From positions 26,247 to 90,246 of the forward strand of contig JBAZMK010000002.1 of assembly GCA_041649755.1 (NCBI GenBank): a DNA stretch of 64,000 nt. Reading direction: 5' to 3'. This stretch comes from Candidatus Pacearchaeota archaeon. GTDB lineage: Archaea > Nanobdellota > Nanobdellia > Pacearchaeales > GW2011-AR1. The position numbers and the translations under genes are program-made. The notes beneath the pieces are model-generated. The model saw only the letters and a list, made by a program, of their open reading frames with translations, ran no database searches and was not told the DNA's origin. Below are positions 4,627 through 56,085 of this stretch, piece by piece; the first letter of the stretch is position 1; each line of letters opens with the position of its first letter.

Positions 4627-6146
4627 ACTCTCGTTTCTCTCAATTTAGTTAAATCATTCCTGTACATTTCTCTTAAATCATTTATTTTAAAGAATTCCAT
4701 TATTATTCTGTCAAACCCAGGACCCCAAGCTAAAACGGGAATATGTCTTCCAAAGATAGGAATTGTAACTTCTGGTCGAAACATACCTGCACCTCCAAGC
4801 TCAACCCATTTTTTATGAGTTGGATGAAACACGTCAATTTCAAGAGATGGCTCGGTATACGGAAAGTATGCAGGGCGTATACGAATTTGCTCGTAACCCA
4901 TTTTCTTAAAAAATTCTACTAAATAACCCAATAACTGCCTAAAATTAGCATTCTCATCTACAACAATCCCTTCTGTCTGGTTAAATTCAAAACTATGACT
5001 CCAATCCACTGTTTCATTCCGAAAACACTTACCTAAAGCAAAATACTTCGCAGGAAATTCTTTGATCTCAGCAATCTTCTTTAAAGTCTGAGCAGATAAA
5101 CAAGTCGTATGTGTCCTTAAAACAACTTTCCTAGCATCGCCCTCATTCCATTTATACTGCCAACCCTTGCTGCCTCCCACCCCCTTCTCGTGCGACTTCT
5201 TTACTTCTTCAACAAGTCTGTTTTTATTGTCTGCCTCAGGCAGTTTTCCTTCAACATTTTTCAGATAAAAAGTATCCTGCATCTCTCTGACAGGATGGTC
5301 CTGTGCTGTAAAAAGAGCATCAAAATTCCAAAAACTAGTCTGAACTAAAGAACCAGTCATCTCCTTAAAACCCATTTCAAGCCAAATTGACTTAGCATAT
5401 CCCGTCGCCTGATTAACAAAATGCCTCTTACCTCCATAAACTTTAGGAACTGCAGTAGTCAAATCATATCTTCTAAACTTCTTGCCTTTCCACAAACCCT
5501 GCTTTATAATTTTAGGTGTTAACTGCTCAATAAGCTCTTCCGACAAGTTTATCTTAGAAACCTCTACCCCAAAAGAGGTAAGTTTAACACTAATAGTTTT
5601 CCTTTTCTCAACCTTAACAATCTCCTTTCTAGACTTCAAAACTCCCAAAGCCATTTTGTCCTGAGGCTCAAGAAAAGAAACTTCTAAAGGCAACTTCTCC
5701 ATAAAAATCTCTTCAAGCATCTTCTTTGTTACCTCTTCTGGTCTGGCGTTCAACACAATCTCCCCCTTTCTAACCTCAACCAAAGCCTTCTTTCTAAGAG
5801 CCCCCAAAGCAACCTTAGCTTCATTATCATTTAATCCGCAAATTCCTTTTATGTCTTTTATAGGGATGCTCTTTTTCTCAAAAATTTTATCAAGTAGAAC
5901 CCTCTCAGGCAGATGTTTCTTCAGGTAATTAACACCCAAAACATCCAAATCAACAACTTCTTTTTCTTCTCCCCTAATTTCAACCAAGCCTTTATTTTTC
6001 AAAAAACCCAAAGCTCTTAAAACAGAAGTCTTATCTAAACCAGCTTTCTTAGAAATATCACTAACATCAAATTCTTTAACAGAAAGACTAGGCAAAACAA
6101 TTCTCTCAATTGGAGAAAGCGATTCAGCAACCGTCTTACTATCCAT
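4614..6146 (-). CDS. pheS: Phenylalanyl-tRNA synthetase alpha subunit (archaeal type, N-terminal winged-helix repeats)
   Basis: Class II aaRS motifs are present: 'FNFDALFTAQDHPVREMQDTFYL' and 'RPAYFPYTEPSLEIDVF'. It is 510 aa. Confidence 0.85.
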   Translation of the reverse strand: MDSKTVAESLSPIERIVLPSLSVKEFDVSDISKKAGLDKTSVLRALGFLKNKGLVEIRGEEKEVVDLDVLGVNYLKKHLPERVLLDKIFEKKSIPIKDIKGICGLNDNEAKVALGALRKKALVEVRKGEIVLNARPEEVTKKMLEEIFMEKLPLEVSFLEPQDKMALGVLKSRKEIVKVEKRKTISVKLTSFGVEVSKINLSEELIEQLTPKIIKQGLWKGKKFRRYDLTTAVPKVYGGKRHFVNQATGYAKSIWLEMGFKEMTGSLVQTSFWNFDALFTAQDHPVREMQDTFYLKNVEGKLPEADNKNRLVEEVKKSHEKGVGGSKGWQYKWNEGDARKVVLRTHTTCLSAQTLKKIAEIKEFPAKYFALGKCFRNETVDWSHSFEFNQTEGIVVDENANFRQLLGYLVEFFKKMGYEQIRIRPAYFPYTEPSLEIDVFHPTHKKWVELGGAGMFRPEVTIPIFGRHIPVLAWGPGFDRIIMEFFKINDLREMYRNDLTKLRETRVWRF

Positions 6147-11080: not shown

Positions 11081-12058
11081 ATGGTGAATGTAGCAATAAA
11101 CGGAATCGGAAGAATAGGAAAAGCCGTTTTAAAAATATGTTTAGAGAAAAAAATAAATGTAGTTGCTATCAATGACTTGACTCCTATAGAAAGTATGGTC
11201 TATTTATTAAAGTATGATTCTGTATATGGAAATTATGAAGAAAAAGTTGAAACAGGAAAAGATTTTCTAAAAATAGGAAGCCAAAAAATAAAAGTATTCA
11301 ACGAAACAAATCCTGAAAACTTGCCTTGGAAAGAACTGAAAGTAGACGTAGTTATTGAGTCAACAGGAATTTTCACTGACAGAGAAGGAGCACAAAAACA
11401 TATCAATGCTGGAGCAAAAAAAGTAATAATCTCCGCACCAGCAAAAAATCCGGATGTAACTATCGTTTTAGGAGTAAACGACAAAGACTTAAAAAAAGAA
11501 CATAAGGTAATCTCAATGGCTTCCTGCACGACTAATTGTCTCGCACCCATAGCAAAAATTCTGAACGAAGAATTTGGAATAGAAAAAGGTTTCATGACCA
11601 CAATCCACGCATATACGAATGACCAAAAAATCTTAGACGTCTCCCACAAAAAATTAAGAAGAGGACGGGCAGGAGCGATAAACTTAATACCTACATCATC
11701 CGGAGCAACAACCTCTGTTTCCGAAGTAATACCCGAACTTAAGGGAAAAATGAATGGACTCGCAGTACGTGCCCCTGTCGCCTGCGGAAGCTTAGTTGAT
11801 TTTACTGCAGAATTAAAAAGAAAGACCTCTGTTGAAGAGATAAATAAATCAATGAAAAAAGCTTCAGAAAAACTCAAAGGAATATTACAATACACCAATG
11901 ATGAAATAGTTTCTTCAGATATAATAAAAAACCCGCACACGTCAATATTTGATTCAACTTTAACTCAAGTGAATGGAAATCTTGTAAAAGTATTCTCATG
12001 GTATGACAACGAATATGGATATAGTTGCAAAATTGTAGATTTAATAAAAAAACTCTAA
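11081..12058 (+). CDS. gap: Glyceraldehyde-3-phosphate dehydrogenase, type I (bacterial/eukaryotic-type)
   Basis: The active-site motif 'ASCTTNCLAP' is present with an N-terminal 'INGIGRIGK' NAD-binding loop. It is 325 aa. Confidence 0.85.
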   Translation: MVNVAINGIGRIGKAVLKICLEKKINVVAINDLTPIESMVYLLKYDSVYGNYEEKVETGKDFLKIGSQKIKVFNETNPENLPWKELKVDVVIESTGIFTDREGAQKHINAGAKKVIISAPAKNPDVTIVLGVNDKDLKKEHKVISMASCTTNCLAPIAKILNEEFGIEKGFMTTIHAYTNDQKILDVSHKKLRRGRAGAINLIPTSSGATTSVSEVIPELKGKMNGLAVRAPVACGSLVDFTAELKRKTSVEEINKSMKKASEKLKGILQYTNDEIVSSDIIKNPHTSIFDSTLTQVNGNLVKVFSWYDNEYGYSCKIVDLIKKL

Positions 12059-12063
12059 ATAAA

Positions 12064-12990
12064 ATGGTTTACGACCTAATCATAATTGGGGCAGGTCCTG
12101 CCGGGATGACTGCTGCAATTTACGCAGCAAGAAACAAATTAAAATTTTTAATGATAAGTCTTGATATAGGGGGACAGGTTTCATGGAGCTCAGAAGTAGA
12201 TAACTACCCCGGACTACCTGACTGCACAGGAATAGAAATAGTAAATAAGTTCAAGGAACACCTAAAAGATTACAAAATAAAAGTGAAAATAGAAGAAGTT
12301 AAAGAGATAAAAAAAATAAAAAATTTCTTCAAAATCAAAACAAAAAATAAAGAATACAAAACAAAAACTATTATCCTTGCATCGGGCAAAAAACCGAAAA
12401 AACTTAATGTACCTGGAGAAGAAAAATTCCTAGGAAAAGGAGTATCTTACTGCACCACCTGCGAAATAAATCCTTATAAAAATAAAAAAGTTGCTATCAT
12501 TGGAGGTGGGAACTCGGGTCTTGAAGCAGCCTTATTTCTAACAAAACATTGTAAGAAAGTCTACGTAGTTGAAATCTTAGACCAAATAAACGGCGAAGAA
12601 TTCTTAAAAGAAAAAGTTAAAAAAAATAAAAAAATAAAAGTAATAACTGGTGCAAGGGTCAAAGAGATCCTAGGAAACCAGAAAGTCCACTCAATAAAAT
12701 ACGAAAAAAGCAACAGGGTGGAATCATTAAAAATTGAAGGAATATTTATTGAAATAGGACTTATAACTATTCTAGACTTTGCAAAGATTATAAAGAAAAA
12801 TCAGTGGAATGAGATTATGATTTTCAGAAGCACAAAAACCCACGAAGAAAATATGACAAACATTCCAGGGATATTCGCTGCAGGAGACTGCACTGATATA
12901 CCCACAAAACAAATCGTAGTCGCTGCAGGAGAAGGAGCAAAAGCAGCATTAGCGGCGATTGATTATATAAATAGAACCGATAAAAAATGA
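12064..12990 (+). CDS. trxB: Thioredoxin-disulfide reductase-like FAD/NAD(P) oxidoreductase
   Basis: It carries the FAD motif 'YDLIIIGAGPAGMTAA', a redox CxxC 'CTTC', the NAD(P) motif 'VAIIGGGNSGLE' and 'GIFAAGDC'. The start is placed at ATG 12064 because the longer ORF would overlap gap. Confidence 0.65.
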   Translation: MVYDLIIIGAGPAGMTAAIYAARNKLKFLMISLDIGGQVSWSSEVDNYPGLPDCTGIEIVNKFKEHLKDYKIKVKIEEVKEIKKIKNFFKIKTKNKEYKTKTIILASGKKPKKLNVPGEEKFLGKGVSYCTTCEINPYKNKKVAIIGGGNSGLEAALFLTKHCKKVYVVEILDQINGEEFLKEKVKKNKKIKVITGARVKEILGNQKVHSIKYEKSNRVESLKIEGIFIEIGLITILDFAKIIKKNQWNEIMIFRSTKTHEENMTNIPGIFAAGDCTDIPTKQIVVAAGEGAKAALAAIDYINRTDKK

Positions 12991-14120
12991 AAACACTATC
13001 TGACTTTAATTTTAAAAACAAAACAGTTATTCTTCGGTCAGACCTCAATTCAGATGTCATAAAAGGAAAAATAATCCCCTCAGAAAGAATTAAAGAATCT
13101 GCCGAAACAATTAAAGAGCTAAAAAACAAAGGAGCAAAAGTCATAGTAATAGCCCACCAAGGAAGCCCTGGAAAAGAAGATTTTATTTCATTAAAACAAC
13201 ATTCAAAAATTTTAAAGAAGTATACCAAAATTAAATTTGTAAAAGATATCATAGGGAAAAAAGCGATCTCAAAAATAAAAAATCTAAAACCGGGAAAAGC
13301 AATTCTTTTAGAAAATATAAGATTTGAAAAAGAGGAATTTAAAACAGATAAAAAAAATTATTTAATAGGAAAACTCTCTTCTCTCGCAGACTTCTATGTT
13401 AATGACGCATTCTCAGTTTGCCATCGTGAACAGGCATCAATAGTTCTTTTCCCAAAATATTTAGAAAGTTGTGCTGGTCGTCTCTTAGAAAAAGAAGTTA
13501 ATGCCCTAAAAAAATTAAAAATAAAGAATTGTCTTTACATTCTCGCAGGAGCAAAACCATCAGATAATTTAAAATTAATGAAAGAAAAAAAAATCCTTGC
13601 ATGTGGCCTCTTTGGACAAATGTGTTTAATTGCAAAAGGGAAGAAACTGGGGGCTCAAGAAGTATACCTAAGGAATATAATAAAAGATTTTGGTAAAATA
13701 ATCGGTATACTAAAGAATAAACAAAAAAATGTGATGACACCAATTGACTTCGCAGTAAAATTTAAAGGAAAAAGAAAAGAAATTGGATTAGAAGACTTCC
13801 CGGTTAACTTTGAAATTTTTGATATTGGAGAAAAAACAATTAATATATTTGTAAAAGAAATAAAAAAAGCAAAAGCGATTTATATGAAAGGTCCTGCAGG
13901 AGACTGTTCAAACAAAAACTTCAGAAAAGGAACATTCAAAATTCTGAAAGCAATAAGTGAATCAAAAGGATTCTCAGTAATCGGTGGGGGACATTTAAGC
14001 GACGCAATAGAAAAATCTAAAATTGACAAAAATAAGTTCAATCATGTTAGCTTATCAGGGGGTGCACTCTTAAATTACATTGCTGGAGAAAAACTCCCAG
14101 GTCTTGAAGCACTAAAATGA
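12987..14120 (+). CDS. pgk: Phosphoglycerate kinase
   Basis: It has the N-terminal 'ILRSDLNSDV' and a C-terminal 'VIGGGH' (GGGD-like) hinge. It is 377 aa and sits in a glycolytic neighbourhood. Confidence 0.7.
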   Translation: MKTLSDFNFKNKTVILRSDLNSDVIKGKIIPSERIKESAETIKELKNKGAKVIVIAHQGSPGKEDFISLKQHSKILKKYTKIKFVKDIIGKKAISKIKNLKPGKAILLENIRFEKEEFKTDKKNYLIGKLSSLADFYVNDAFSVCHREQASIVLFPKYLESCAGRLLEKEVNALKKLKIKNCLYILAGAKPSDNLKLMKEKKILACGLFGQMCLIAKGKKLGAQEVYLRNIIKDFGKIIGILKNKQKNVMTPIDFAVKFKGKRKEIGLEDFPVNFEIFDIGEKTINIFVKEIKKAKAIYMKGPAGDCSNKNFRKGTFKILKAISESKGFSVIGGGHLSDAIEKSKIDKNKFNHVSLSGGALLNYIAGEKLPGLEALK

Positions 14121-14833
14121 GAATAATTAAAACAAAAAATTATAAAGAGTTATCAAAAAAAGCAACAGAAATCTTAGCCGAAGAAATAAAAAATAAACCA
14201 GACACAACCCTTTTACTTCCTACTGGGAAAACACCTCTTGGGCTTTATAAAAATTTAGTCAAAAAGTATAATAAAAAAAGAATTGATTTCTCAAAAATTA
14301 AAATTTTCAACCTTGACGAGTATTATCTTATAGATAAAGATGACAAAAGAAGTTTTAATTATTATTTAAGAAAAAATCTTCTTGATAAGATTAATGCAAA
14401 AAAAGAAAATGTTTTACTGATAAATGGAAAATCAAAAGACTCAAAGAAAGAATGTGAAAATTACGAGAACAAAATAAGAAAAAATCCAGTTGACATTGCA
14501 ATTTTAGGGGTAGGAAAAAACGGACATATAGCATTTAACGAACCAAGCTCAAAATTTAATTCAAAAACAAGGCTGGTAAAACTAACCAATGAAACAATAA
14601 AAAGAAACTCTTCCTTTTTTAAAAAAGCCCCCAATAAAGCAATAACTTTAGGAATAAAAACTATTTTGTCTTCTAAAAAAATAGTTCTTTTGGCTTCTGG
14701 AAAAGAAAAAGCAAAAGCAATCAAAGAATTAGTTAGTAAAAGAATCTCGGAAGAATACCCTGTCAGTTTTTTAAAAAAACACAAAAATCTCCTTGTTATT
14801 ATTGACAAAGAAGCGGGAAAGTATATAAAATAA
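14117..14833 (+). CDS. Glucosamine-6-phosphate deaminase / 6-phosphogluconolactonase family protein
   Basis: Motifs 'LLLPTGKTPLGLY', 'FNLDEY' and 'ILGVGKNGHIAFNEP' match the NagB/Pgl signature. Confidence 0.7.
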   Translation: MRIIKTKNYKELSKKATEILAEEIKNKPDTTLLLPTGKTPLGLYKNLVKKYNKKRIDFSKIKIFNLDEYYLIDKDDKRSFNYYLRKNLLDKINAKKENVLLINGKSKDSKKECENYENKIRKNPVDIAILGVGKNGHIAFNEPSSKFNSKTRLVKLTNETIKRNSSFFKKAPNKAITLGIKTILSSKKIVLLASGKEKAKAIKELVSKRISEEYPVSFLKKHKNLLVIIDKEAGKYIK

Positions 14834-14850
14834 AAATCCTTAGGTAAAAT

Positions 14851-15945
14851 ATGATTGAAAAAGCATACAAAAAAGCCCTTGAAACAATAGACCTTTGTTC
14901 TCAAAAGCAAGGACTTTACGCATCTGGAGGAAAAAAAGGCTATAGAGGAGTCTGGGCACGAGACAGCATTATTAGTTTAATAGGCGCTATAACTGAAGAT
15001 AAAAAAGACTACAAAGAAATTTTCAAAAGAAGCCTCTTAACCCTAGGAGAAAAACAAAGCAAAAGAGGACAAATACCCAACGCAGTCCACGGATTTGAAG
15101 ATAAAAAACTAAAAGTAGATTACATCTCAATCGATTCTAGCCTTTGGTTCATAATCGGACACTATATCTATAAAGAAAAATACGGAAATTCCCTCTTCAA
15201 AAAAGAAAATAAAAAAATAAAAAAAGCTCTCACTTGGATTGAATATCGCGATTTCGGAGAAGAAGGCTTACCTGACCAACTGCCCACAACCGACTGGCAG
15301 GACGCCTTCCCCCATAAATACGGCGAAGTAATAAACACACAAGCCCTATACTATAAAATTCTAAAACTAATGAAAAACAAAAAAGCAAACAAGATTAGAA
15401 AAATAGTAAATCAAGACAAAGAACATGGTCTTTGGAATGGAAATTATTACTGGGCATACCGCTGGAAAAATCACAATAAGTATAAAGAAATCGGCGAGTG
15501 GTTCGACAGCCTCGGAAACCTTTTAGCAATAATCTTTGACTTAGCCGATAAAAAACAATCAGAAAAAATCATCACTTACATAAAGAAAAACAAAATTAAC
15601 AAACCTTTTCCTGTAAAAGCAATCTGGCCCCCAATAAAAAAAGGAAGCAAATATTGGGAGGATTATTTTTTAGATTGCGACGCAGGAAAACCTTTTCATT
15701 ACCTTAACGGAGGAATCTGGCCGTTCATCGGGGGTTTCTACGTTCTTGCCTTAATAAAAATGAAAAAATTTAAAGAAGCAAAAAAAGAACTACAACTTCT
15801 TGCCGAGTCAAACACAAAAAATAATCCTTTCCCGGAGTGGATAAATCCTCTTGACAAAAAAACCCATGGAGTCTATCAAGCATGGAGTGCAGGGCTCTAC
15901 ATCTTAGCTTACAACTCTTTGAAAAAGAAAAAAGTTTTAATCTAA
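14851..15945 (+). CDS. (alpha/alpha)6-barrel glycoside hydrolase (GDE_C / GH15-GH63-GH100 clan-like)
   Basis: The motif 'GYRGVWARDSIISL' and multiple aromatic-rich segments are typical of amylo-1,6-glucosidase/glucoamylase-type toroids. Confidence 0.45.
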   Translation: MIEKAYKKALETIDLCSQKQGLYASGGKKGYRGVWARDSIISLIGAITEDKKDYKEIFKRSLLTLGEKQSKRGQIPNAVHGFEDKKLKVDYISIDSSLWFIIGHYIYKEKYGNSLFKKENKKIKKALTWIEYRDFGEEGLPDQLPTTDWQDAFPHKYGEVINTQALYYKILKLMKNKKANKIRKIVNQDKEHGLWNGNYYWAYRWKNHNKYKEIGEWFDSLGNLLAIIFDLADKKQSEKIITYIKKNKINKPFPVKAIWPPIKKGSKYWEDYFLDCDAGKPFHYLNGGIWPFIGGFYVLALIKMKKFKEAKKELQLLAESNTKNNPFPEWINPLDKKTHGVYQAWSAGLYILAYNSLKKKKVLI

Positions 15946-15982
15946 TTAGTTTCAATTATGAAATTATTTTTCTTCAAAACAC

Positions 15983-17131
15983 TCACAAACCTAATTTCTC
16001 CTTAATAACGTCAAGCATTTTCTTACTGGTAACTCTATAATCAAGATTTTTGACAACATGTTCCCTTCCAGCTTTTCCCATCTGATTACGGAGCTTCTCA
16101 TCGGTTAAAAGTTTCAAAGTATACTTCTGCAAATCCTCTACGTCCGCCCTATAAGCAAAAGTCTTTGATTTATCAAACTTTACAATCTGCTTGGTGCAAA
16201 ACCCCATAGAAGGATAAGCCCACTCCTCATCTAATTGAACTTCCTCCGCAACTTTGGCTAAAAAGCCCGTCTTATTATGAACAATCGTTTCAGCAGGACC
16301 GCCAACATTTATAGAAATAACAGGTTTCCCGCAAGCCATAGCCTCAACCTGTATCATTCCAAAACCCTCAATTCTAGAAGGTGCGGCATAAATATCACAG
16401 CAATTCAAGACTTCAGCCATAAACTCGGGCGAAAAAGTATCATCAATAAAGACAACTTTGTCAATAATCCCAAGAGACTCCGCCAACTCCCTCTCGATAT
16501 CATGCCACTCGCCTGCACAGTCACTTGGCCAAGACTTACAGACATACTTCCAGTCCTTAAACTCTTTATCAATTTCGGCTAAAGCTCTCATCATTTCCTG
16601 CGCACCCTTAGAAGTAACGTCCCCCCCAATAGTTAAAATCATCTTCTCGTTATCCCTAACACCAAACATTCTTCTCAAGGCAAGCCTTTTCTCTTTATTT
16701 TTTTCAGTATTTTCCATAGGTTTAAACAAATCTGTATCTATCCCTATATGCATCGGAACAATCTTGCTGACATCAACACCATCACGGGCATAAATACTCC
16801 TTACCCACTCGCTCGTCGTAAACATCAGTTTAAGTTTGTTAAACTCTTCTTTATAATTAGCAACCCACCCATCAGCATTAAACCAAGGAATTGGAGTAAC
16901 ACCAAACTTTAAGGGTTCTTGAACAACTTCAGGAACATTCCCCCAAAATCCAACCCCGATAACAAAATCAAAATTCCCATTTCTCAGAAGAAACTCTTTC
17001 TGTATACTTTCCTTAAAGTGACAAGGAACAGCCTCAACACCCAAATTAAGCAACCCCTTATAAAGAAGATCTCCTTGCAGACTCTGTCCATCTGGCTCAG
17101 GGGGGTAGGCGTAAAGAATCAAAGCTTTCAT
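15983..17131 (-). CDS. Glycosyltransferase family 4 (GT-B fold; PIG-A/BshA/MshA-like)
   Basis: The C-terminal 'EGFGMIQVEAMACGKPVISINVGGPAETIVHNKTGFL' is the canonical GT4 EX7E region. Confidence 0.8.
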   Translation of the reverse strand: MKALILYAYPPEPDGQSLQGDLLYKGLLNLGVEAVPCHFKESIQKEFLLRNGNFDFVIGVGFWGNVPEVVQEPLKFGVTPIPWFNADGWVANYKEEFNKLKLMFTTSEWVRSIYARDGVDVSKIVPMHIGIDTDLFKPMENTEKNKEKRLALRRMFGVRDNEKMILTIGGDVTSKGAQEMMRALAEIDKEFKDWKYVCKSWPSDCAGEWHDIERELAESLGIIDKVVFIDDTFSPEFMAEVLNCCDIYAAPSRIEGFGMIQVEAMACGKPVISINVGGPAETIVHNKTGFLAKVAEEVQLDEEWAYPSMGFCTKQIVKFDKSKTFAYRADVEDLQKYTLKLLTDEKLRNQMGKAGREHVVKNLDYRVTSKKMLDVIKEKLGL

Positions 17132-17760
17132 CTTATTTTAACGAGATTAAATGCCTCAACCTTCTTGCAACATCTTTCTTCAAAACTATTTTCGTCAAAG
17201 CCATAAACCTGTTTAATTAAATTTTTTTTCTTAACTAAATCAGTGGATTGCAACCTTATAAATTTATCCGAACTCTTCTTTGCATAACAATGAGCTCCGC
17301 GCCTTGAATAAGAAAAGAAAAAAAGCTTATCACATCCTAGCATCCCATTCTCTATCATAAACTTTACAGCATTATGAACATCAATATGCCTCTTATGCCC
17401 ATATTCTCCATTCTCTCCGTGAGTAAAAATATAATCATACTTAGTTCTACTAATTAAAGATCTTATTCTGTCAACAACCTCTCTCAATTCAACATCTTCT
17501 AAAGAATCATCTTCTAAGTCTGACATAAAACAAGTAGCGTTATAATTCTCACAAACCTTCATAAATTTGGGCGCCCTGTCTGCGTCGTCTTTCCTGCATA
17601 GAGAAACAATCGTGATGTTCCACTTGTTCTGCAGAAGAGTTCCTCCCATCCAAATCGTTTCGTCGTCGGGATGAGCAACAATCACTAAGACCTCTTTCTT
17701 CATTAATAATCCTACTTCAATCAGATTTAAAAATCTTGTCATCACAAGAGACACAATCAA
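17128..17760 (-). CDS. PIG-L / LmbE family N-acetylglucosaminyl deacetylase
   Basis: The zinc-binding 'VIVAHPDDETIWMGGTL' and the downstream 'HxDH'-like 'HKRHIDVH' are present. It overlaps the GT4 gene by 4 nt. Confidence 0.75.
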   Translation of the reverse strand: MIVSLVMTRFLNLIEVGLLMKKEVLVIVAHPDDETIWMGGTLLQNKWNITIVSLCRKDDADRAPKFMKVCENYNATCFMSDLEDDSLEDVELREVVDRIRSLISRTKYDYIFTHGENGEYGHKRHIDVHNAVKFMIENGMLGCDKLFFFSYSRRGAHCYAKKSSDKFIRLQSTDLVKKKNLIKQVYGFDENSFEERCCKKVEAFNLVKIR

Positions 17761-17822
17761 ATCCTAACAAAATAAAGACAACATTTATTAACTTAACTAA
17801 ACATTTAATGAAAGGTGATAAA

Positions 17823-18719
17823 ATGTTTGATGTAGTCAGTTTCGGTTCCGCCCTTATAGATATATTTGTCAACACAGGAATATCAGAAGAAAAAGGATTT
17901 ATGTATTACCCCTTAGGAGAAAAAATCCAAATCAAAGAACTCCGATTTGACATAGGTGGCGGAGGAACAAACACTGCAGTAGCCTTCTCAAGACTGGGGT
18001 TAAAAACTGGATATGTAGGAAAAGTCGGAGACGATGAAAGCGGAGAAAAAGTTATTAAAATGTTGAAAAAGGAAAAAATAAAATTTCTGGGAAAAATAGA
18101 AAAAGGAAAAATTACTGGGCACTCAATAATCCTTGATGGCAAAGGTGGAGAAAGAACAATTTTAGTATACAAAGGAGTTAACGATGAAATAATTATGAAG
18201 GATATAAAGAGGTTTAAAACAAAATGGCTCTATTTTAGTTCATCAAGAGGCAAAAGCTTTCAGACAAAAAAAGAATTAATAGGAATATTAAAGAAAAGGG
18301 GGGTAAAACTCGCATTCAATCCTAGTGCCTACTTAATAAAAAAAGAGAACATAAGCTATCTGCTAAAAATGACTGATATCTTAATCCTTAATAAAGAAGA
18401 AGCACAAATGCTCGTCGGAAAAAGAGAAAAAGACTTGCTTAAGGGACTAAACAAACTTGGTCCAAAGATTATTGTAATAACAGACAAAAACAAATTGATA
18501 AGTTGTTACGACGGAAACAAAAAATATTTTCTAAAACCTAACAAAATAAAAGTTGTTGAAAGAACTGGTGCTGGAGACGCCTTCTCTTCAGGCTTCGTAG
18601 CTGGTCAAATTGCAGGAAAATCAATTGAGTATAGCTTAAGGCTCGGATTAAGAGAAAGCGAATCTGTAATTCAACACTTCGGAGCTAAGAATAATCTAAT
18701 AAGAGAAAAAATAAAATGA
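17823..18719 (+). CDS. PfkB-family carbohydrate kinase (possible 6-phosphofructokinase/ribokinase-like)
   Basis: It has the 'GGGGTNTAVA' and 'GAGDAFSSGFVAG' pfkB signatures. GGTGA lies 5 nt upstream of ATG 17823. It sits next to fba and tpi. Confidence 0.7.
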   Translation: MFDVVSFGSALIDIFVNTGISEEKGFMYYPLGEKIQIKELRFDIGGGGTNTAVAFSRLGLKTGYVGKVGDDESGEKVIKMLKKEKIKFLGKIEKGKITGHSIILDGKGGERTILVYKGVNDEIIMKDIKRFKTKWLYFSSSRGKSFQTKKELIGILKKRGVKLAFNPSAYLIKKENISYLLKMTDILILNKEEAQMLVGKREKDLLKGLNKLGPKIIVITDKNKLISCYDGNKKYFLKPNKIKVVERTGAGDAFSSGFVAGQIAGKSIEYSLRLGLRESESVIQHFGAKNNLIREKIK

Positions 18720-52313: not shown

Positions 52314-53027
52314 ATGGAAAGAATACATATAATAGGAAAAAACCCCGAAAGCATAGACAACTTAAAGAAAGAACTAAAAGATAATAATTTCACTTATTGC
52401 GAAGAAAACCCAGAAATTGTAATTAGTTACGGAGGAGACGGAATGTTCCTCATAGCAGAAAGAATATTCCCAAGTATACCTAAGTTGCTCATAAGAGATA
52501 GCGCCAAAGGAAACAATTGCCATAAAATAAATTTAAAAGAAGCATTAAAATATCTCAACGAAGGAAATTTCAAAATTGAAGAAATAAAAAAGATAAAAGC
52601 CACACACAAAGGAAGATTTGAATACAGAGAATTAATAGGGATAAATGATATCGTTATAAGAAACAGCTTACCAACAGAAGCGATAAGATTTAGATACAAA
52701 GTAAATAACTCTGAATGGAGTGATACTTTAATTGGAGATGGGCTTGTAATTTCAACTCCTTATGGCTCAAAAAGAGGCGCATACTTTTATTCAATTGAAC
52801 AAAAAAGTTTCAATGAAGGTTTAGGAATCGCATTTAATAATACAACAGAAAAAAAAGGACATTTAATATTAAAAGAAGAAGATATAGTTGAAGTTGAAAT
52901 AATGAGGGGTATAGGAGTTTTAGTCTCTGACAACAACAGAGATTTCATCAATCTGGAAAATGGAGATAAGGTAAAAATCAGACTAATTAAAGACACTGCA
53001 AAAAGAATAATCCTTAAAGAAGAATAA
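52314..53027 (+). CDS. nadK: NAD kinase
   Basis: It has the 'ISYGGDGMFL' GGDG motif and 'GDGLVISTPYGSKRGAYFYS'. Confidence 0.75.
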   Translation: MERIHIIGKNPESIDNLKKELKDNNFTYCEENPEIVISYGGDGMFLIAERIFPSIPKLLIRDSAKGNNCHKINLKEALKYLNEGNFKIEEIKKIKATHKGRFEYRELIGINDIVIRNSLPTEAIRFRYKVNNSEWSDTLIGDGLVISTPYGSKRGAYFYSIEQKSFNEGLGIAFNNTTEKKGHLILKEEDIVEVEIMRGIGVLVSDNNRDFINLENGDKVKIRLIKDTAKRIILKEE

Positions 53028-53039
53028 TCTTTGAAAATC

Positions 53040-53047
53040 TTTTTAAA
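53040..53047 (+). promoter_or_regulatory. TATA box upstream of tRNA-Gly
   Basis: TTTTTAAA lies 23-30 nt upstream of the tRNA 5' end. Confidence 0.35.
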
Positions 53048-53069
53048 GAGTCATTCCATCAAAGTTTAT

Positions 53070-53140
53070 GCGCGATTGGTTTAGTGGTAGAACGTAACGT
53101 TGCCAACGTTGAGACACGAGTTCGATTCTCGTATCGCGCA
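53070..53140 (+). tRNA. tRNA-Gly (anticodon GCC)
   Basis: The sequence is GCGCGATTGGTTTAGTGGTAGAACGTAACGTTGCCAACGTTGAGACACGAGTTCGATTCTCGTATCGCGCA, with anticodon loop TTGCCAA. Confidence 0.85.
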
Positions 53141-53186
53141 TTGATCAGAATGTATTAAACGACCTTATACGAAAAGCTAACTCGTA

Positions 53187-53209
53187 GAGTTCGATTCTCG
53201 TATCGCGCA
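53187..53209 (+). repeat. Exact 23-nt direct repeat of the tRNA-Gly 3' end (T-arm plus acceptor 3' strand)
   Basis: GAGTTCGATTCTCGTATCGCGCA at 53118..53140 is repeated at 53187..53209, 46 nt downstream. This is att-site-like duplication. Confidence 0.6.
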
Positions 53210-53256
53210 CTAAATTTCAATCCTAACAAAGATTCTAAAGAATTACATTAAATAAG

Positions 53257-56085
53257 TTAAACTTTCCTAAATCCAAACCAAAACTTCTTTCCTTTTACCT
53301 TACCATCTTCAGTAAAATCCAGATTTTCATCGCTTCTTCCAAAGAAAATCTTTTTAGCACCGACTCTTTCTTTAAGAAAACCTTCATAACCCCTCAAAAC
53401 CGAATCGTCTTCCACTTCAACAAAAAGGTCTATTAAGTCCTCTTTAACTAAATTTACTTTCTTTCTGGAAGCCTGAATATTCCTTGAAATTTCTCTCACA
53501 AAACCCTCTGCTTCAAGCTCAGGGGTTATAATAAAATCTAATTTAACAAACAACCCTTTCCCTTTCTTCAATTTTACTCTCTTTACATTTACTTCCTCTT
53601 TTATAATGTCTAAAAACTCCTCAGATAATTCAACACCAGTAACCTCAAGTTTAGAAAGAGGCTGTTTAAGTGAAACCTTCGCAACATCCCTCTCTTTAAG
53701 TGCAAGCGACACAACTTCCCTTGTAAGGTTCATTTTATCCTTAAGGTTTTTATTCATTTTCTTTTTATCAAAATCAGGCCAATTTTGAAGATGAACAGAT
53801 TCCTTATTACCTAAACTCCTGTAAATTACCTCTGAAACAAAAGGTATTATTGAAGCACAGACTTTAGAGAGATTATTTAAAACATAATTCAAAGTAGTCT
53901 TAGCATCTGAATCGCCCTCGTTAAATCTATCCCTGCTCCTACGAACATACCATGTTGAAAGGTCATCAATAAAGACCCTCATAAGATTTGTTGCAGAGAC
54001 AGTATCATAACCATTAAGAGAATTTTTAACATCACAGATTAACTCATTCATTCTTGAAATTACCCACAAATCTAAAACATTTTTAGAGTCTATAACTTTC
54101 TTCACTTTTATCTCAGGATAAAGAGAATAAAAATTACTTACGTTATAAAGCAAAACCAGAACTTTCTTGTAAATCTCTTCCAAACTTTTCTCCGAGAAAT
54201 TAATATTCTCTGCACTCATTACGGGAGAAGACAAAAGATAAAATCTCAAAGAATCTGCCCCATATTTTTCAACTATTTTAAAAGGATCCTGATAATTCCT
54301 CTTAGATTTTGACATCTTCTGCCCATCTTCAGCTAAAATGGTACCCGTCACAAGAACATTCTCAAAAGGTTTTTTACCAAATAATATCGCAGACAAAGCC
54401 ATCATATAATAAAACCACGCACGAGTCTGACCTATATACTCTGTAATAAACTGAGCAGGAAAATTCTTGTCAAAATAATCTTTATTCTCAAAAGGATAAT
54501 GAAACTGGGCAAAACTCATTGAGCCTGACTCGAACCAGCAATCCAAAACTTCCGGAATTCTCTTATACTCCTCTCCACCTATCTTTAAAACAACCTCATC
54601 AAGGTAATCTTTGTGTAAATCAATCTCACCTTTCAAACTCTTAGCATACTTCTTTAACTCATCTATTGAACCTATAACTTTTATTTTTCCAGAATCTGAC
54701 TTCCAGATAGGAATAGCTGACGCCCAGTACCTGTTTCTCGTAATATTCCAGTCAGGAGCCATCTCTATGTTGTTTCTCATTCTGCCTTCCTTCAAAAATT
54801 CAGGAAACCAGCTTATTTTGGAATTTACTTCAAGAAGCTTTTTCTTAATTTTCTGAATATTCACAAACCAGGCAGGAAGAGCTCGATAAATCAATTTTGT
54901 ATCACATCTGTAACAAAAAGGATATTCATGCTCTATTTTCCGCGACAAAACCACCTTCCCTTCTTTCTTCAAATCGGCCACAATTTTCTCATTTACCTCA
55001 TGAACGTACTCCCCTTCATAATCCGCAACTTCAGACGTAAACCTACCATTTCCATCAACTGGCTGAACTGAAGGAATACTATACTTCCTGCATACAACAT
55101 TATCGTCTTCCCCAAAAGCAGGTGCAGTATGAACAATTCCTGTCCCATCTTCCTCACTCACAAAATCCCCTAAAATAACCCTAAACGAATTCGGCATACC
55201 CTTAAAATAAGGATATAGAGGTTCATACTCCATCCCTTCAAGCTCCCTTCCCTTCACAGACTTTAGAACCTCATACTCCTCTTCAGATTTATAGAAATTT
55301 TTTAAAAGTGCCTTTGAAAGAATGTAAGTATTCCCATCTGACTTATCTTTTACAAAAGCATATTCAAGTAAAGGATTAACTGCTAAAGCAAGATTTGAAG
55401 GAAGTGTCCAGGGCGTAGTTGTCCAGGATAAAGCAAAAGTCTTATCAAGATTTTTCACCTTAAACTTTACTACAACAGAAATATCCTTCACATTTTTATA
55501 AGAATTATCCATCGCTATCTCAGATTTCGCAAGAGGTGTCGCACAATGAGGACAATACATTAAAATTTTCTCTCCCTCATATAGATATCCTTTATCATAC
55601 AACTCCTTAAAAGCCCACCATACCGACTCTATATATTTCGTATCCATCGTTTTATACCCTTTTTCAAAATCCACCCACCTCCCAATCCGATTAATATACT
55701 CTTTCCAATCCTCTACATAAGTAAGAACCTTAGAGCGACAAAAATCATTAAATTTCTTTACTCCCATTTTCTCAATTTCATCTTTTGAATTAATTCCGAG
55801 TTCTCTTTCTGCAATGCTTTCGACTGGAAGCCCGTGACAATCCCACCCCCAGACCCGCTTGACATACATACCATTCATAGTAAAAAACCTCGGAAAAACA
55901 TCTTTTATAACAGAAACAAGTATATGCCCATAGTGGGGGAGACCCGTAGCAAAAGGAGGACCATCATAAAAAGTATAAGGTTTTCCTTTCTTTGTCTTCT
56001 CAAGAGATTTCTCAAAAGTCTTATCTTTATTCCAAAAAACTAAAACCTCCTTTTCCTGTTCATCAATAGTTTTCCTTTCAGCCAT
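53257..56085 (-). CDS. ileS: Isoleucyl-tRNA synthetase (archaeal/eukaryal type)
   Basis: It has the HIGH region 'PPFATGLPHYGH', the editing-domain 'GTGIVHTAPAFGEDD', 'WFESG' and 'KMSKS'. It is 942 aa. Confidence 0.7.
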   Translation of the reverse strand: MAERKTIDEQEKEVLVFWNKDKTFEKSLEKTKKGKPYTFYDGPPFATGLPHYGHILVSVIKDVFPRFFTMNGMYVKRVWGWDCHGLPVESIAERELGINSKDEIEKMGVKKFNDFCRSKVLTYVEDWKEYINRIGRWVDFEKGYKTMDTKYIESVWWAFKELYDKGYLYEGEKILMYCPHCATPLAKSEIAMDNSYKNVKDISVVVKFKVKNLDKTFALSWTTTPWTLPSNLALAVNPLLEYAFVKDKSDGNTYILSKALLKNFYKSEEEYEVLKSVKGRELEGMEYEPLYPYFKGMPNSFRVILGDFVSEEDGTGIVHTAPAFGEDDNVVCRKYSIPSVQPVDGNGRFTSEVADYEGEYVHEVNEKIVADLKKEGKVVLSRKIEHEYPFCYRCDTKLIYRALPAWFVNIQKIKKKLLEVNSKISWFPEFLKEGRMRNNIEMAPDWNITRNRYWASAIPIWKSDSGKIKVIGSIDELKKYAKSLKGEIDLHKDYLDEVVLKIGGEEYKRIPEVLDCWFESGSMSFAQFHYPFENKDYFDKNFPAQFITEYIGQTRAWFYYMMALSAILFGKKPFENVLVTGTILAEDGQKMSKSKRNYQDPFKIVEKYGADSLRFYLLSSPVMSAENINFSEKSLEEIYKKVLVLLYNVSNFYSLYPEIKVKKVIDSKNVLDLWVISRMNELICDVKNSLNGYDTVSATNLMRVFIDDLSTWYVRRSRDRFNEGDSDAKTTLNYVLNNLSKVCASIIPFVSEVIYRSLGNKESVHLQNWPDFDKKKMNKNLKDKMNLTREVVSLALKERDVAKVSLKQPLSKLEVTGVELSEEFLDIIKEEVNVKRVKLKKGKGLFVKLDFIITPELEAEGFVREISRNIQASRKKVNLVKEDLIDLFVEVEDDSVLRGYEGFLKERVGAKKIFFGRSDENLDFTEDGKVKGKKFWFGFRKV

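Follow-up and report, generated by a model that had tools for sequence, protein, structure and literature searches.

Why the end of a tRNA gene is present a second time directly behind the gene, and what the second copy is, are the questions raised by one intergenic region of a Candidatus Pacearchaeota MAG. This region was analysed within a window of 64,000 nt (the whole stretch of DNA under study, to which positions refer unless a locus is named). The window is low in GC (about 0.29–0.41), and its source contig has a length of 101 kb in ENA and of 119.7 kb in NCBI. An earlier reading based on the letters alone (the sequence-only reading) had reported that the last 23 nt of the tRNA-Gly(GCC) gene recur exactly 46 nt downstream, and had taken the pair of repeats as an integration or excision footprint. 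The repeat is present as reported and is the same in two assemblies. The features of the locus are listed in Table 1.

Table 1. Features of the tRNA-Gly(GCC) locus in window coordinates.
Feature	Position	Strand	Description
NAD-kinase-like gene, upstream flank	52314..53027	+	Synteny anchor; homologues P0002 (85%) and P0003 (78%) lead to L009 and L010
Promoter region of tRNA-Gly (predicted)	53030..53047	+	Block TTTGAAAATCTTTTTAAA, invariant in the window, L009 and L010
Intact tRNA-Gly(GCC)	53070..53140	+	71 nt; Rfam RF00005, 69.3 bits, full length; ARAGORN
Direct repeat, copy 1	53118..53140	+	GAGTTCGATTCTCGTATCGCGCA, tRNA positions 51-73
First part of spacer	53141..53166	.	26 nt without assigned source; window and L009 identical at 16/26
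Degenerate inverted T-arm copy	53167..53185	-	ATACGAAAAGCTAACTCGT, reverse complement of tRNA positions 49-67
Quasi-palindrome, 17-3-17	53167..53203	+	Inverted T-arm copy plus start of copy 2; 82% complementary, 3-nt loop
Invariant island	53174..53209	+	36 nt; window and L009 identical at 36/36; 13 nt before copy 2 plus copy 2
Direct repeat, copy 2	53187..53209	+	Exact orphan copy of tRNA positions 51-73
Isoleucyl-tRNA synthetase (IleRS) gene, downstream flank	53257..56085	-	Convergent with tRNA-Gly

The gene that contains copy 1 has no encoded CCA and ends with the discriminator A73. ARAGORN places its bounds one base wider on each side than Rfam. Copy 1 comprises three nucleotides of the 5′ strand of the T stem, the T loop, the 3′ strand of the T stem, the 3′ strand of the acceptor stem and the discriminator. 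The 23-mer is present exactly twice in the window, where it is the sole long high-complexity exact repeat. None of 100 dinucleotide shuffles contained a match to it, even with three mismatches allowed. Thus, the recurrence is far beyond chance. The window contains five tRNA genes, and the 3′ end is duplicated in tRNA-Gly(GCC) alone.

Between the ENA contig assembled with MEGAHIT (L001) and an independent Logan assembly of SRR8542065 (L002), the identity of the intergenic region is 100%. Furthermore, a diverged relative from another sample (L009) has the same architecture with sequence differences, which argues against an assembly artefact. With this agreement of different assembly software and the missing matches in shuffled sequence, an artefact or a chance repeat retains practically no probability.

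Upstream of the tRNA gene is a TATA-like box (TTTTTAAA, 53040-53047), the end of which is 22 nt away from the mature 5′ end. The other four tRNA genes of the window have boxes of the CTTT(T)AWAA type, which end 21–26 nt upstream. The block around the box of tRNA-Gly is the putative promoter of this gene, as judged from its sequence and position. A sub-threshold Rfam match to the C/D-box snoRNA-like family SNORD47 (52991-53067, minus strand, 21 bits, E 0.19) overlaps the promoter region and is probably due to chance in AT-rich sequence. On the other side of the repeat, the stop codon of the IleRS gene is located 47 nt past copy 2.

Copy 2 is not a second tRNA gene. ARAGORN calls no tRNA there, and Rfam has no match at 53141-53215, not even at E<=10. 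The two bases before copy 2 are TA, not AC, so that only three of the five T-stem pairs are possible. An acceptor 5′ strand for ATCGCGC (GCGCGAT) is present nowhere in the window except in tRNA-Gly itself. The sequence-only reading had named a second functional tRNA as the finding that would overturn the footprint, and in this respect the footprint survives. A cis intron with copy 2 as an alternative 3′ exon was also rejected: inspection revealed no bulge-helix-bulge in whichever register the repeat is read, and splicing would yield the same tRNA again.

Another function for copy 2 is suggested by split tRNAs. Separately encoded 3′ halves are known from Nanoarchaeum equitans, and a tri-split tRNA-Gly from Caldivirga maquilingensis. 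The leaders of N. equitans have a length of 13 nt. Like these halves, copy 2 is an orphan 3′ piece of a tRNA behind a conserved leader of about 13 nt, and the host is a DPANN archaeon. Copy 2 and its leader would then represent the 3′ half of a trans-spliced tRNA-Gly, with the 5′ piece encoded elsewhere. A tRNA splicing endonuclease gene is located about 5 kb away, and related tRNA-Gly(UCC) genes share the same 23-mer. These UCC genes are all complete, however, the sole endonuclease seen is a single 172-aa subunit of the alpha type, and the introns of relatives are at the canonical position 37/38. Unlike the halves from N. equitans and Caldivirga, the piece starts at position 51 and not at 26, 30 or 38, and neither a partner nor a bulge-helix-bulge nor a promoter was found for it. 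About 81 kb of the contig contain no 5′ piece, no anti-leader, no CGAG..TTAGCTT junction and no additional GCGCGAT strand. For a bulge-helix-bulge at 50/51, the CUCG at positions -6..-3 of the leader needs CGAG at -6..-3 of the 5′ exon. On inspection, this motif is present in no related tRNA-Gly gene; at the corresponding site these genes end with ...GGAC/GACA-AC. A promoter box is missing 21-26 nt upstream of the piece, and the only TATA-like hexamer (CTTATA) ends 17 nt before G51, i.e. 4 nt before the conserved leader. Additionally, an intact gene for the same tRNA is located 46 nt upstream of copy 2, and the leader is explained as inverted T arm (see below). Split tRNAs have been discussed for this phylum in a preprint, and the split-tRNA set of N. 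equitans is summarised in a preprint. All in all, a split tRNA-Gly is highly improbable here.

Many of the related Pace- and Woesearchaeota tRNA-Gly genes contain introns of about 40–110 nt at position 37/38 (L003/L018 and L027 with anticodon GCC; L007/L021, L014, L016, L017, L019 and L031 with UCC). ARAGORN did not call these genes, and the tRNA inventories of such MAGs are thus easily undercounted.

A detailed view of the 69 bases that follow the intact tRNA gene shows one inverted and one forward partial copy of the tRNA end. The order of the elements is tRNA positions 1-73, 26 nt, the reverse complement of 49-67, a single A and positions 51-73. The inverted segment covers the whole T arm plus positions 66-67 and forms the last 19 nt of the 46-nt spacer, with the A as the joint to copy 2. 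It is complementary to 53116-53134 at 16 of 19 positions in the window and at 15 of 19 in L009. These matches were equalled in 5 of 5000 and 30 of 5000 shuffles. Behind 34 other genes (the four remaining tRNAs of the window and 30 related tRNA-Gly loci) the best comparable match is 9-13 of 19. The inverted copy and copy 2 face each other head to head and form a quasi-palindrome, the junction of which (CTCGT/A[C]GAG) is the perfect palindrome CTCGT/ACGAG minus one C. The description given in the sequence-only reading is correct for the direct repeat and incomplete for the spacer, in which the inverted T arm had been overlooked.

The remaining 26 nt do not significantly resemble the local flanks, be it in the window, L009 or L010 (p 0.06-0.93), and have no match in the phage or plasmid collections. 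Several sources and functions of the spacer were tried and rejected. A simple 69-bp tandem duplication of the tRNA end and its flank was discarded because in none of the three lineages do the flanks significantly resemble the spacer. A resemblance to L010 (CAGAAT/TTAAAC) is lost on shuffling, and the identity to a tRNA 5′ half, which might have decayed in place, is at the random level (~24%). No pair of C and D boxes is kept between the window and L009, as would be expected of a C/D-box sRNA, and the SNORD47 match is below threshold. A mini-CRISPR array does not apply either, because the spacers are homologous between the lineages and the repeat is the tRNA end itself. A terminator scan found no intrinsic terminator.

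The distribution of the repeat was followed in related genomes. An exact search with the 23-mer yielded six loci in GTDB species genomes and 21 loci in JGI metagenomes. All are from contigs of the Pace-, Woese- or Nanoarchaeota type and are ordinary tRNA-Gly(GCC) or (UCC) genes, and the 23-mer is single-copy in each of the 27. A comparison with relatives had been proposed to reveal an occupied site; none was found among these 27 loci, which are followed by thermosome, SecF/SecD-like and similar genes.

Two loci share the flanking genes of the window. L009, from another sample, contains in the same order a tRNA-Gly gene, a 46-nt spacer, an exact copy 2 and IleRS. L010 has the same neighbours and an identical tRNA-Gly gene, the sequence of which is common to all three lineages, but neither spacer nor copy 2. 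Its tRNA gene runs straight into the flank, which is the arrangement of an unoccupied site. The next-closest relatives of NAD kinase and IleRS have lost the tRNA from this position, and the informative lineages are these three only. Thus, the repeat is carried by two of three syntenic lineages and an element by none. According to the sequence-only reading, the same tandem arrangement in all relatives, with no element ever present, would speak against a footprint; of this, the second half is what was found.

The window and L009 are far apart. Their NAD kinase genes are 81% identical at the DNA level, with 60% identity at four-fold degenerate sites (52% in IleRS). Since L009 has the same spacer and copy 2 at this distance, the scar predates the split of the two lineages. 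Two mismatches of the inverted arm are common to both, which argues for a single ancestral event. By these comparisons the scar is old and inherited, and older than the separation of lineages that differ at about 40% of their four-fold sites. The repeat had also been interpreted as an excision footprint. It is not the footprint of a recent excision: precise excision leaves no repeat, and the scar was present before these lineages diverged.

The flanks of the locus have a history of their own. The IleRS of the window shares only 67% identity with the enzymes of L009 and L010, compared with 84% between these two, and no database protein exceeds 70% identity to it. Genes near IleRS are 73-91% identical to those of L010, and NAD kinase is 85% identical to that of L009. 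This pattern suggests that IleRS has evolved fast or was replaced by a xenologue, the tRNA locus being the breakpoint.

The layout of the locus resembles the displaced tDNA fragments (attL/attR) of integrase-mediated genomic islands and proviruses, which are listed in Islander and known as partial tRNA genes from Thermococcaceae: an intact tRNA gene is followed on the same strand by an exact 3′ copy that starts in the T stem, a relative has an empty site and the fragment is not functional as a tRNA. In Islander, a 3′ fragment is present in 3760 of 3919 islands and 1836 of the 3919 belong to the T-stem class. Fragments of this class are the common outcome of insertion by tyrosine integrases. 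Among the documented sources of archaeal partial tRNA genes, integration is the main one. The repeat matches a fragment of the T-stem class in position, orientation and extent, L010 is empty and insertions are seen at related loci (L006 and L028, see below); an ancient insertion is favoured for these reasons. We therefore tentatively read the feature as what is left of one ancient insertion, which took place at the T arm and 3′ end of tRNA-Gly(GCC) in a lineage of Pacearchaeota and survives as a non-coding fossil. An extension of the direct repeat from the T stem to exactly the discriminator, immediately downstream of the intact gene, is in line with an insertion, and so is the 26-nt segment without detectable homology to the local flanks.

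In this event, which was presumably site-specific, a DNA element would have recombined with the tRNA gene inside the segment from T arm to discriminator. The recombination would have regenerated an intact tRNA gene with copy 1 and displaced the original 3′ segment downstream as copy 2. Nearly all of the inserted DNA would later have been deleted, with the 26 nt and the inverted T-arm copy as the 46 nt left. The scar would then have been inherited vertically and kept in the lineages of the window and of L009. The lineage of L010 would either never have had it or would have lost it by recombination between the 23-nt repeats. Today, the scar contains no gene, no integrase and no second tRNA.

No mobile element was found that could be assigned to the scar. 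The sequence-only reading had noted that no integrase is present in the window. This is borne out by precomputed Pfam calls, which for all genes of the window and of about 8 kb on each side include no integrase, resolvase or transposase family and only housekeeping genes, with some ORFs having no Pfam hit. The 23-mer, two junction probes and an idealised palindrome have no match in 2.9 million viral contigs. An 18-mer finds only ordinary phage tRNAs with other acceptor stems there, and a 16-mer finds four chance matches. An attP-like match was also not found in the phage and plasmid collections; like the viral contigs, these collections sample DPANN elements poorly. Unlike in the islands of Islander, where kilobases separate the two copies, the intervening sequence is only 46 nt long, of which 19 nt are tRNA-derived, and it holds neither an integrase gene nor foreign DNA of island size. 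No integrase or element is present in relatives or collections. Furthermore, an inverted T arm abuts the fragment, which is perfect over a long divergence. The footprint proposed in the sequence-only reading is in part borne out as an origin, by the displaced-fragment layout and by the empty site in L010; a recent or still active site is not supported, and no element, integrase or attP was obtained.

Two large adjacent genes (1702 aa and 618 aa) without a Pfam hit are located in the window from 61285 to beyond 64000 and in L139 at 11231-18192. The genes next to them, outside the window, are tRNA-Ser(GCT) and small HEPN and HNH genes.

Two related loci contain insertions at tRNA-Gly genes. On the minus strand of L006 (JAUUWR010000083.1, 919-420), a divergent tRNA-Gly(GCC), itself complete, precedes an 85-aa ORF and a 42-nt 3′ half. 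This half corresponds to the window-type tRNA-Gly from anticodon loop to 3′ end and is displaced by about 400 nt. The sequence TAAATCAA is present after both tRNA copies. Genes for a ThsB-type TIR protein, an 8xMP membrane protein and a CARF-wHTH protein are located upstream, which gives the locus the appearance of a defence islet at a tRNA hot spot. The contig (4.2 kb) has no integrase gene. In L028 (CEPX01402625.1, minus strand, about 1530-955), about 0.5 kb of DNA interrupts the tRNA-Gly(GCC) gene in the D loop. The 5′ piece (positions 1-22) is followed by the 11-mer GTTGGATAATG and a complete, different tRNA-Gly(GCC) (1459-1387). A stretch of about 370 nt, in which the opposite strand has a small ORF, leads to CATTATCCAAC, which is complementary to the 11-mer, and to the 3′ piece (positions 12 to 73). 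Between the 5′ and the 3′ piece there is an overlap of 10 nt. Possible readings of the arrangement are a giant intron, a split gene and an insertion with a replacement tRNA of its own. Together with the scar, both loci indicate that the same type of tRNA-Gly gene is a recurrent insertion target in related archaea.

The inverted T arm is a difficulty for the favoured insertion. From a plain attP x attB exchange between double strands, no inverted T arm directly next to copy 2 would be expected, and a local replication error accounts better for it. Quasi-palindromes and the series duplication, inversion, duplication are known products of replication template switching or fold-back synthesis. The locus shares with them the order direct, inverted, direct and the head-to-head junction that is one base short of a perfect palindrome. 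[quoted passage not shown] All identifiable sequence of the insertion is tRNA-derived, and foreign genes are present nowhere in the window and about 8 kb on each side. Another small local duplication is found at the same locus in L010, i.e. a 20-nt repeat across the IleRS stop codon. However, the 26-nt segment would have to be a copy of the flank behind copy 2, and the predicted duplicated flank is not detectable (see above); it may have been lost through divergence and indels. The first junction of this path shows no microhomology. Furthermore, the ends of the repeat coincide with functional boundaries of the tRNA (start of the T arm and discriminator), for which an att core is the simpler explanation. 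Local template switching is the main rival of the insertion as the origin of the scar, and somewhat less likely than it.

The duplication in L010 is located at 4832-4873. It is a direct repeat with one mismatch, (c/t)(a/t)gaatccaaacttaaactt, the copies of which are 22 nt apart. With this, the lineage without the tRNA-end repeat has a small duplication of its own in the same intergenic region.

An inverted copy next to a regenerated site also has a parallel among insertions. CTX phage integrates with XerCD by means of a folded single-stranded hairpin attP, and an inverted copy of the target is then present beside the regenerated site at one end of the insert. The layout of the scar is the same, by analogy only. 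In contrast to CTX phage, neither an element of this kind nor recombinase dependence nor a single-stranded replicon is known or was found here, and the loop of the hairpin would have only 1–3 nt.

The insertion, which we continue to favour, and template switching meet the same obstacle in the conservation of the scar. Between the window and L009, the first 33 nt of the spacer are identical at 20 positions, which is the neutral level, and the first 26 nt have the same identity as four-fold sites (0.60). In the adjacent 36 nt there is no change at all, against about 14 expected. The difference between 36/36 and 20/33 is significant (Fisher p=1.5e-5), also for the 13-nt part alone (p=0.009). Past copy 2, the sequence is again diverged, with indels. 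Part of the scar thus appears, from this comparison, to have been held constant since the lineages split. A neutral scar left by an insertion should have decayed, and template switching leaves the invariance equally unexplained; neither origin accounts for the 36 unchanged nucleotides. They may be held by selection, either on a hairpin of the plus-strand trailer or on a DNA palindrome, or by copy correction from the tRNA gene, with chance added for the 13-nt part.

Selection would make the 36–40 nt of inverted T arm and tRNA 3′ piece a functional module now, whatever their origin. In its most likely form, this module would be an RNA hairpin in a read-through 3′ trailer, with a putative role in termination, in 3′ processing or in shielding the convergent IleRS gene from antisense transcripts. 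A protein-bound DNA palindrome is the alternative. Apart from the invariance itself, at an identity of 60% at four-fold sites, the pattern of substitutions is in favour of an RNA. RNAalifold predicts a consensus hairpin over the quasi-palindrome. The three differences in the inverted arm (C>U, A>G and A>G from window to L009) keep or add pairs in the plus-strand RNA, with predicted energies of -8.2 kcal/mol in the window and -11.9 kcal/mol in L009, and the hairpin of the minus strand is lost in L009. No run of four or more T is present between tRNA-Gly and copy 2, which makes read-through plausible. On the other hand, the stability of the hairpin is unremarkable compared with shuffled sequences (z -0.7 and -1.5; z 0.05 to 0.5 for a larger region). 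L010 manages without the module, and no similar inverted T-arm copy is present 3′ of the other tRNAs of the window or at 30 related tRNA-Gly loci. The comparison comprises two independent sequences only, and each of the three substitutions is a transition opposite G, U or C, of a kind that is readily tolerated by chance. A selected module is therefore improbable as the primary explanation, although less so than a split tRNA. Slightly fainter still is the chance that the quasi-palindrome is not junk in a wider sense, being either a selected tRNA-Gly module (a trailer hairpin, or a free tRNA 3′ piece that acts in trans) or the first footprint of a CTX-phage-like hairpin attP in DPANN archaea.

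The object is real and of an ordinary kind: a scar with a tRNA fragment, which has an unusual palindromic structure and an unexpectedly strong conservation. Partial tRNA genes are routine markers of past integration, and the scar mostly belongs to this ordinary class. A repeat of a tRNA 3′ end is nevertheless not automatically an attL/attR pair, as a template switch during replication gives the same first impression. For Pacearchaeota and other DPANN archaea, the mobile elements of which are almost unknown, the scar and the two related loci with insertions mark this tRNA-Gly as a gene that seems to be targeted repeatedly. Finally, 36 nt of a supposedly dead scar are perfect while their neighbours are randomised. 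If selection is the reason, they would constitute an undescribed cis element at an archaeal tRNA locus.
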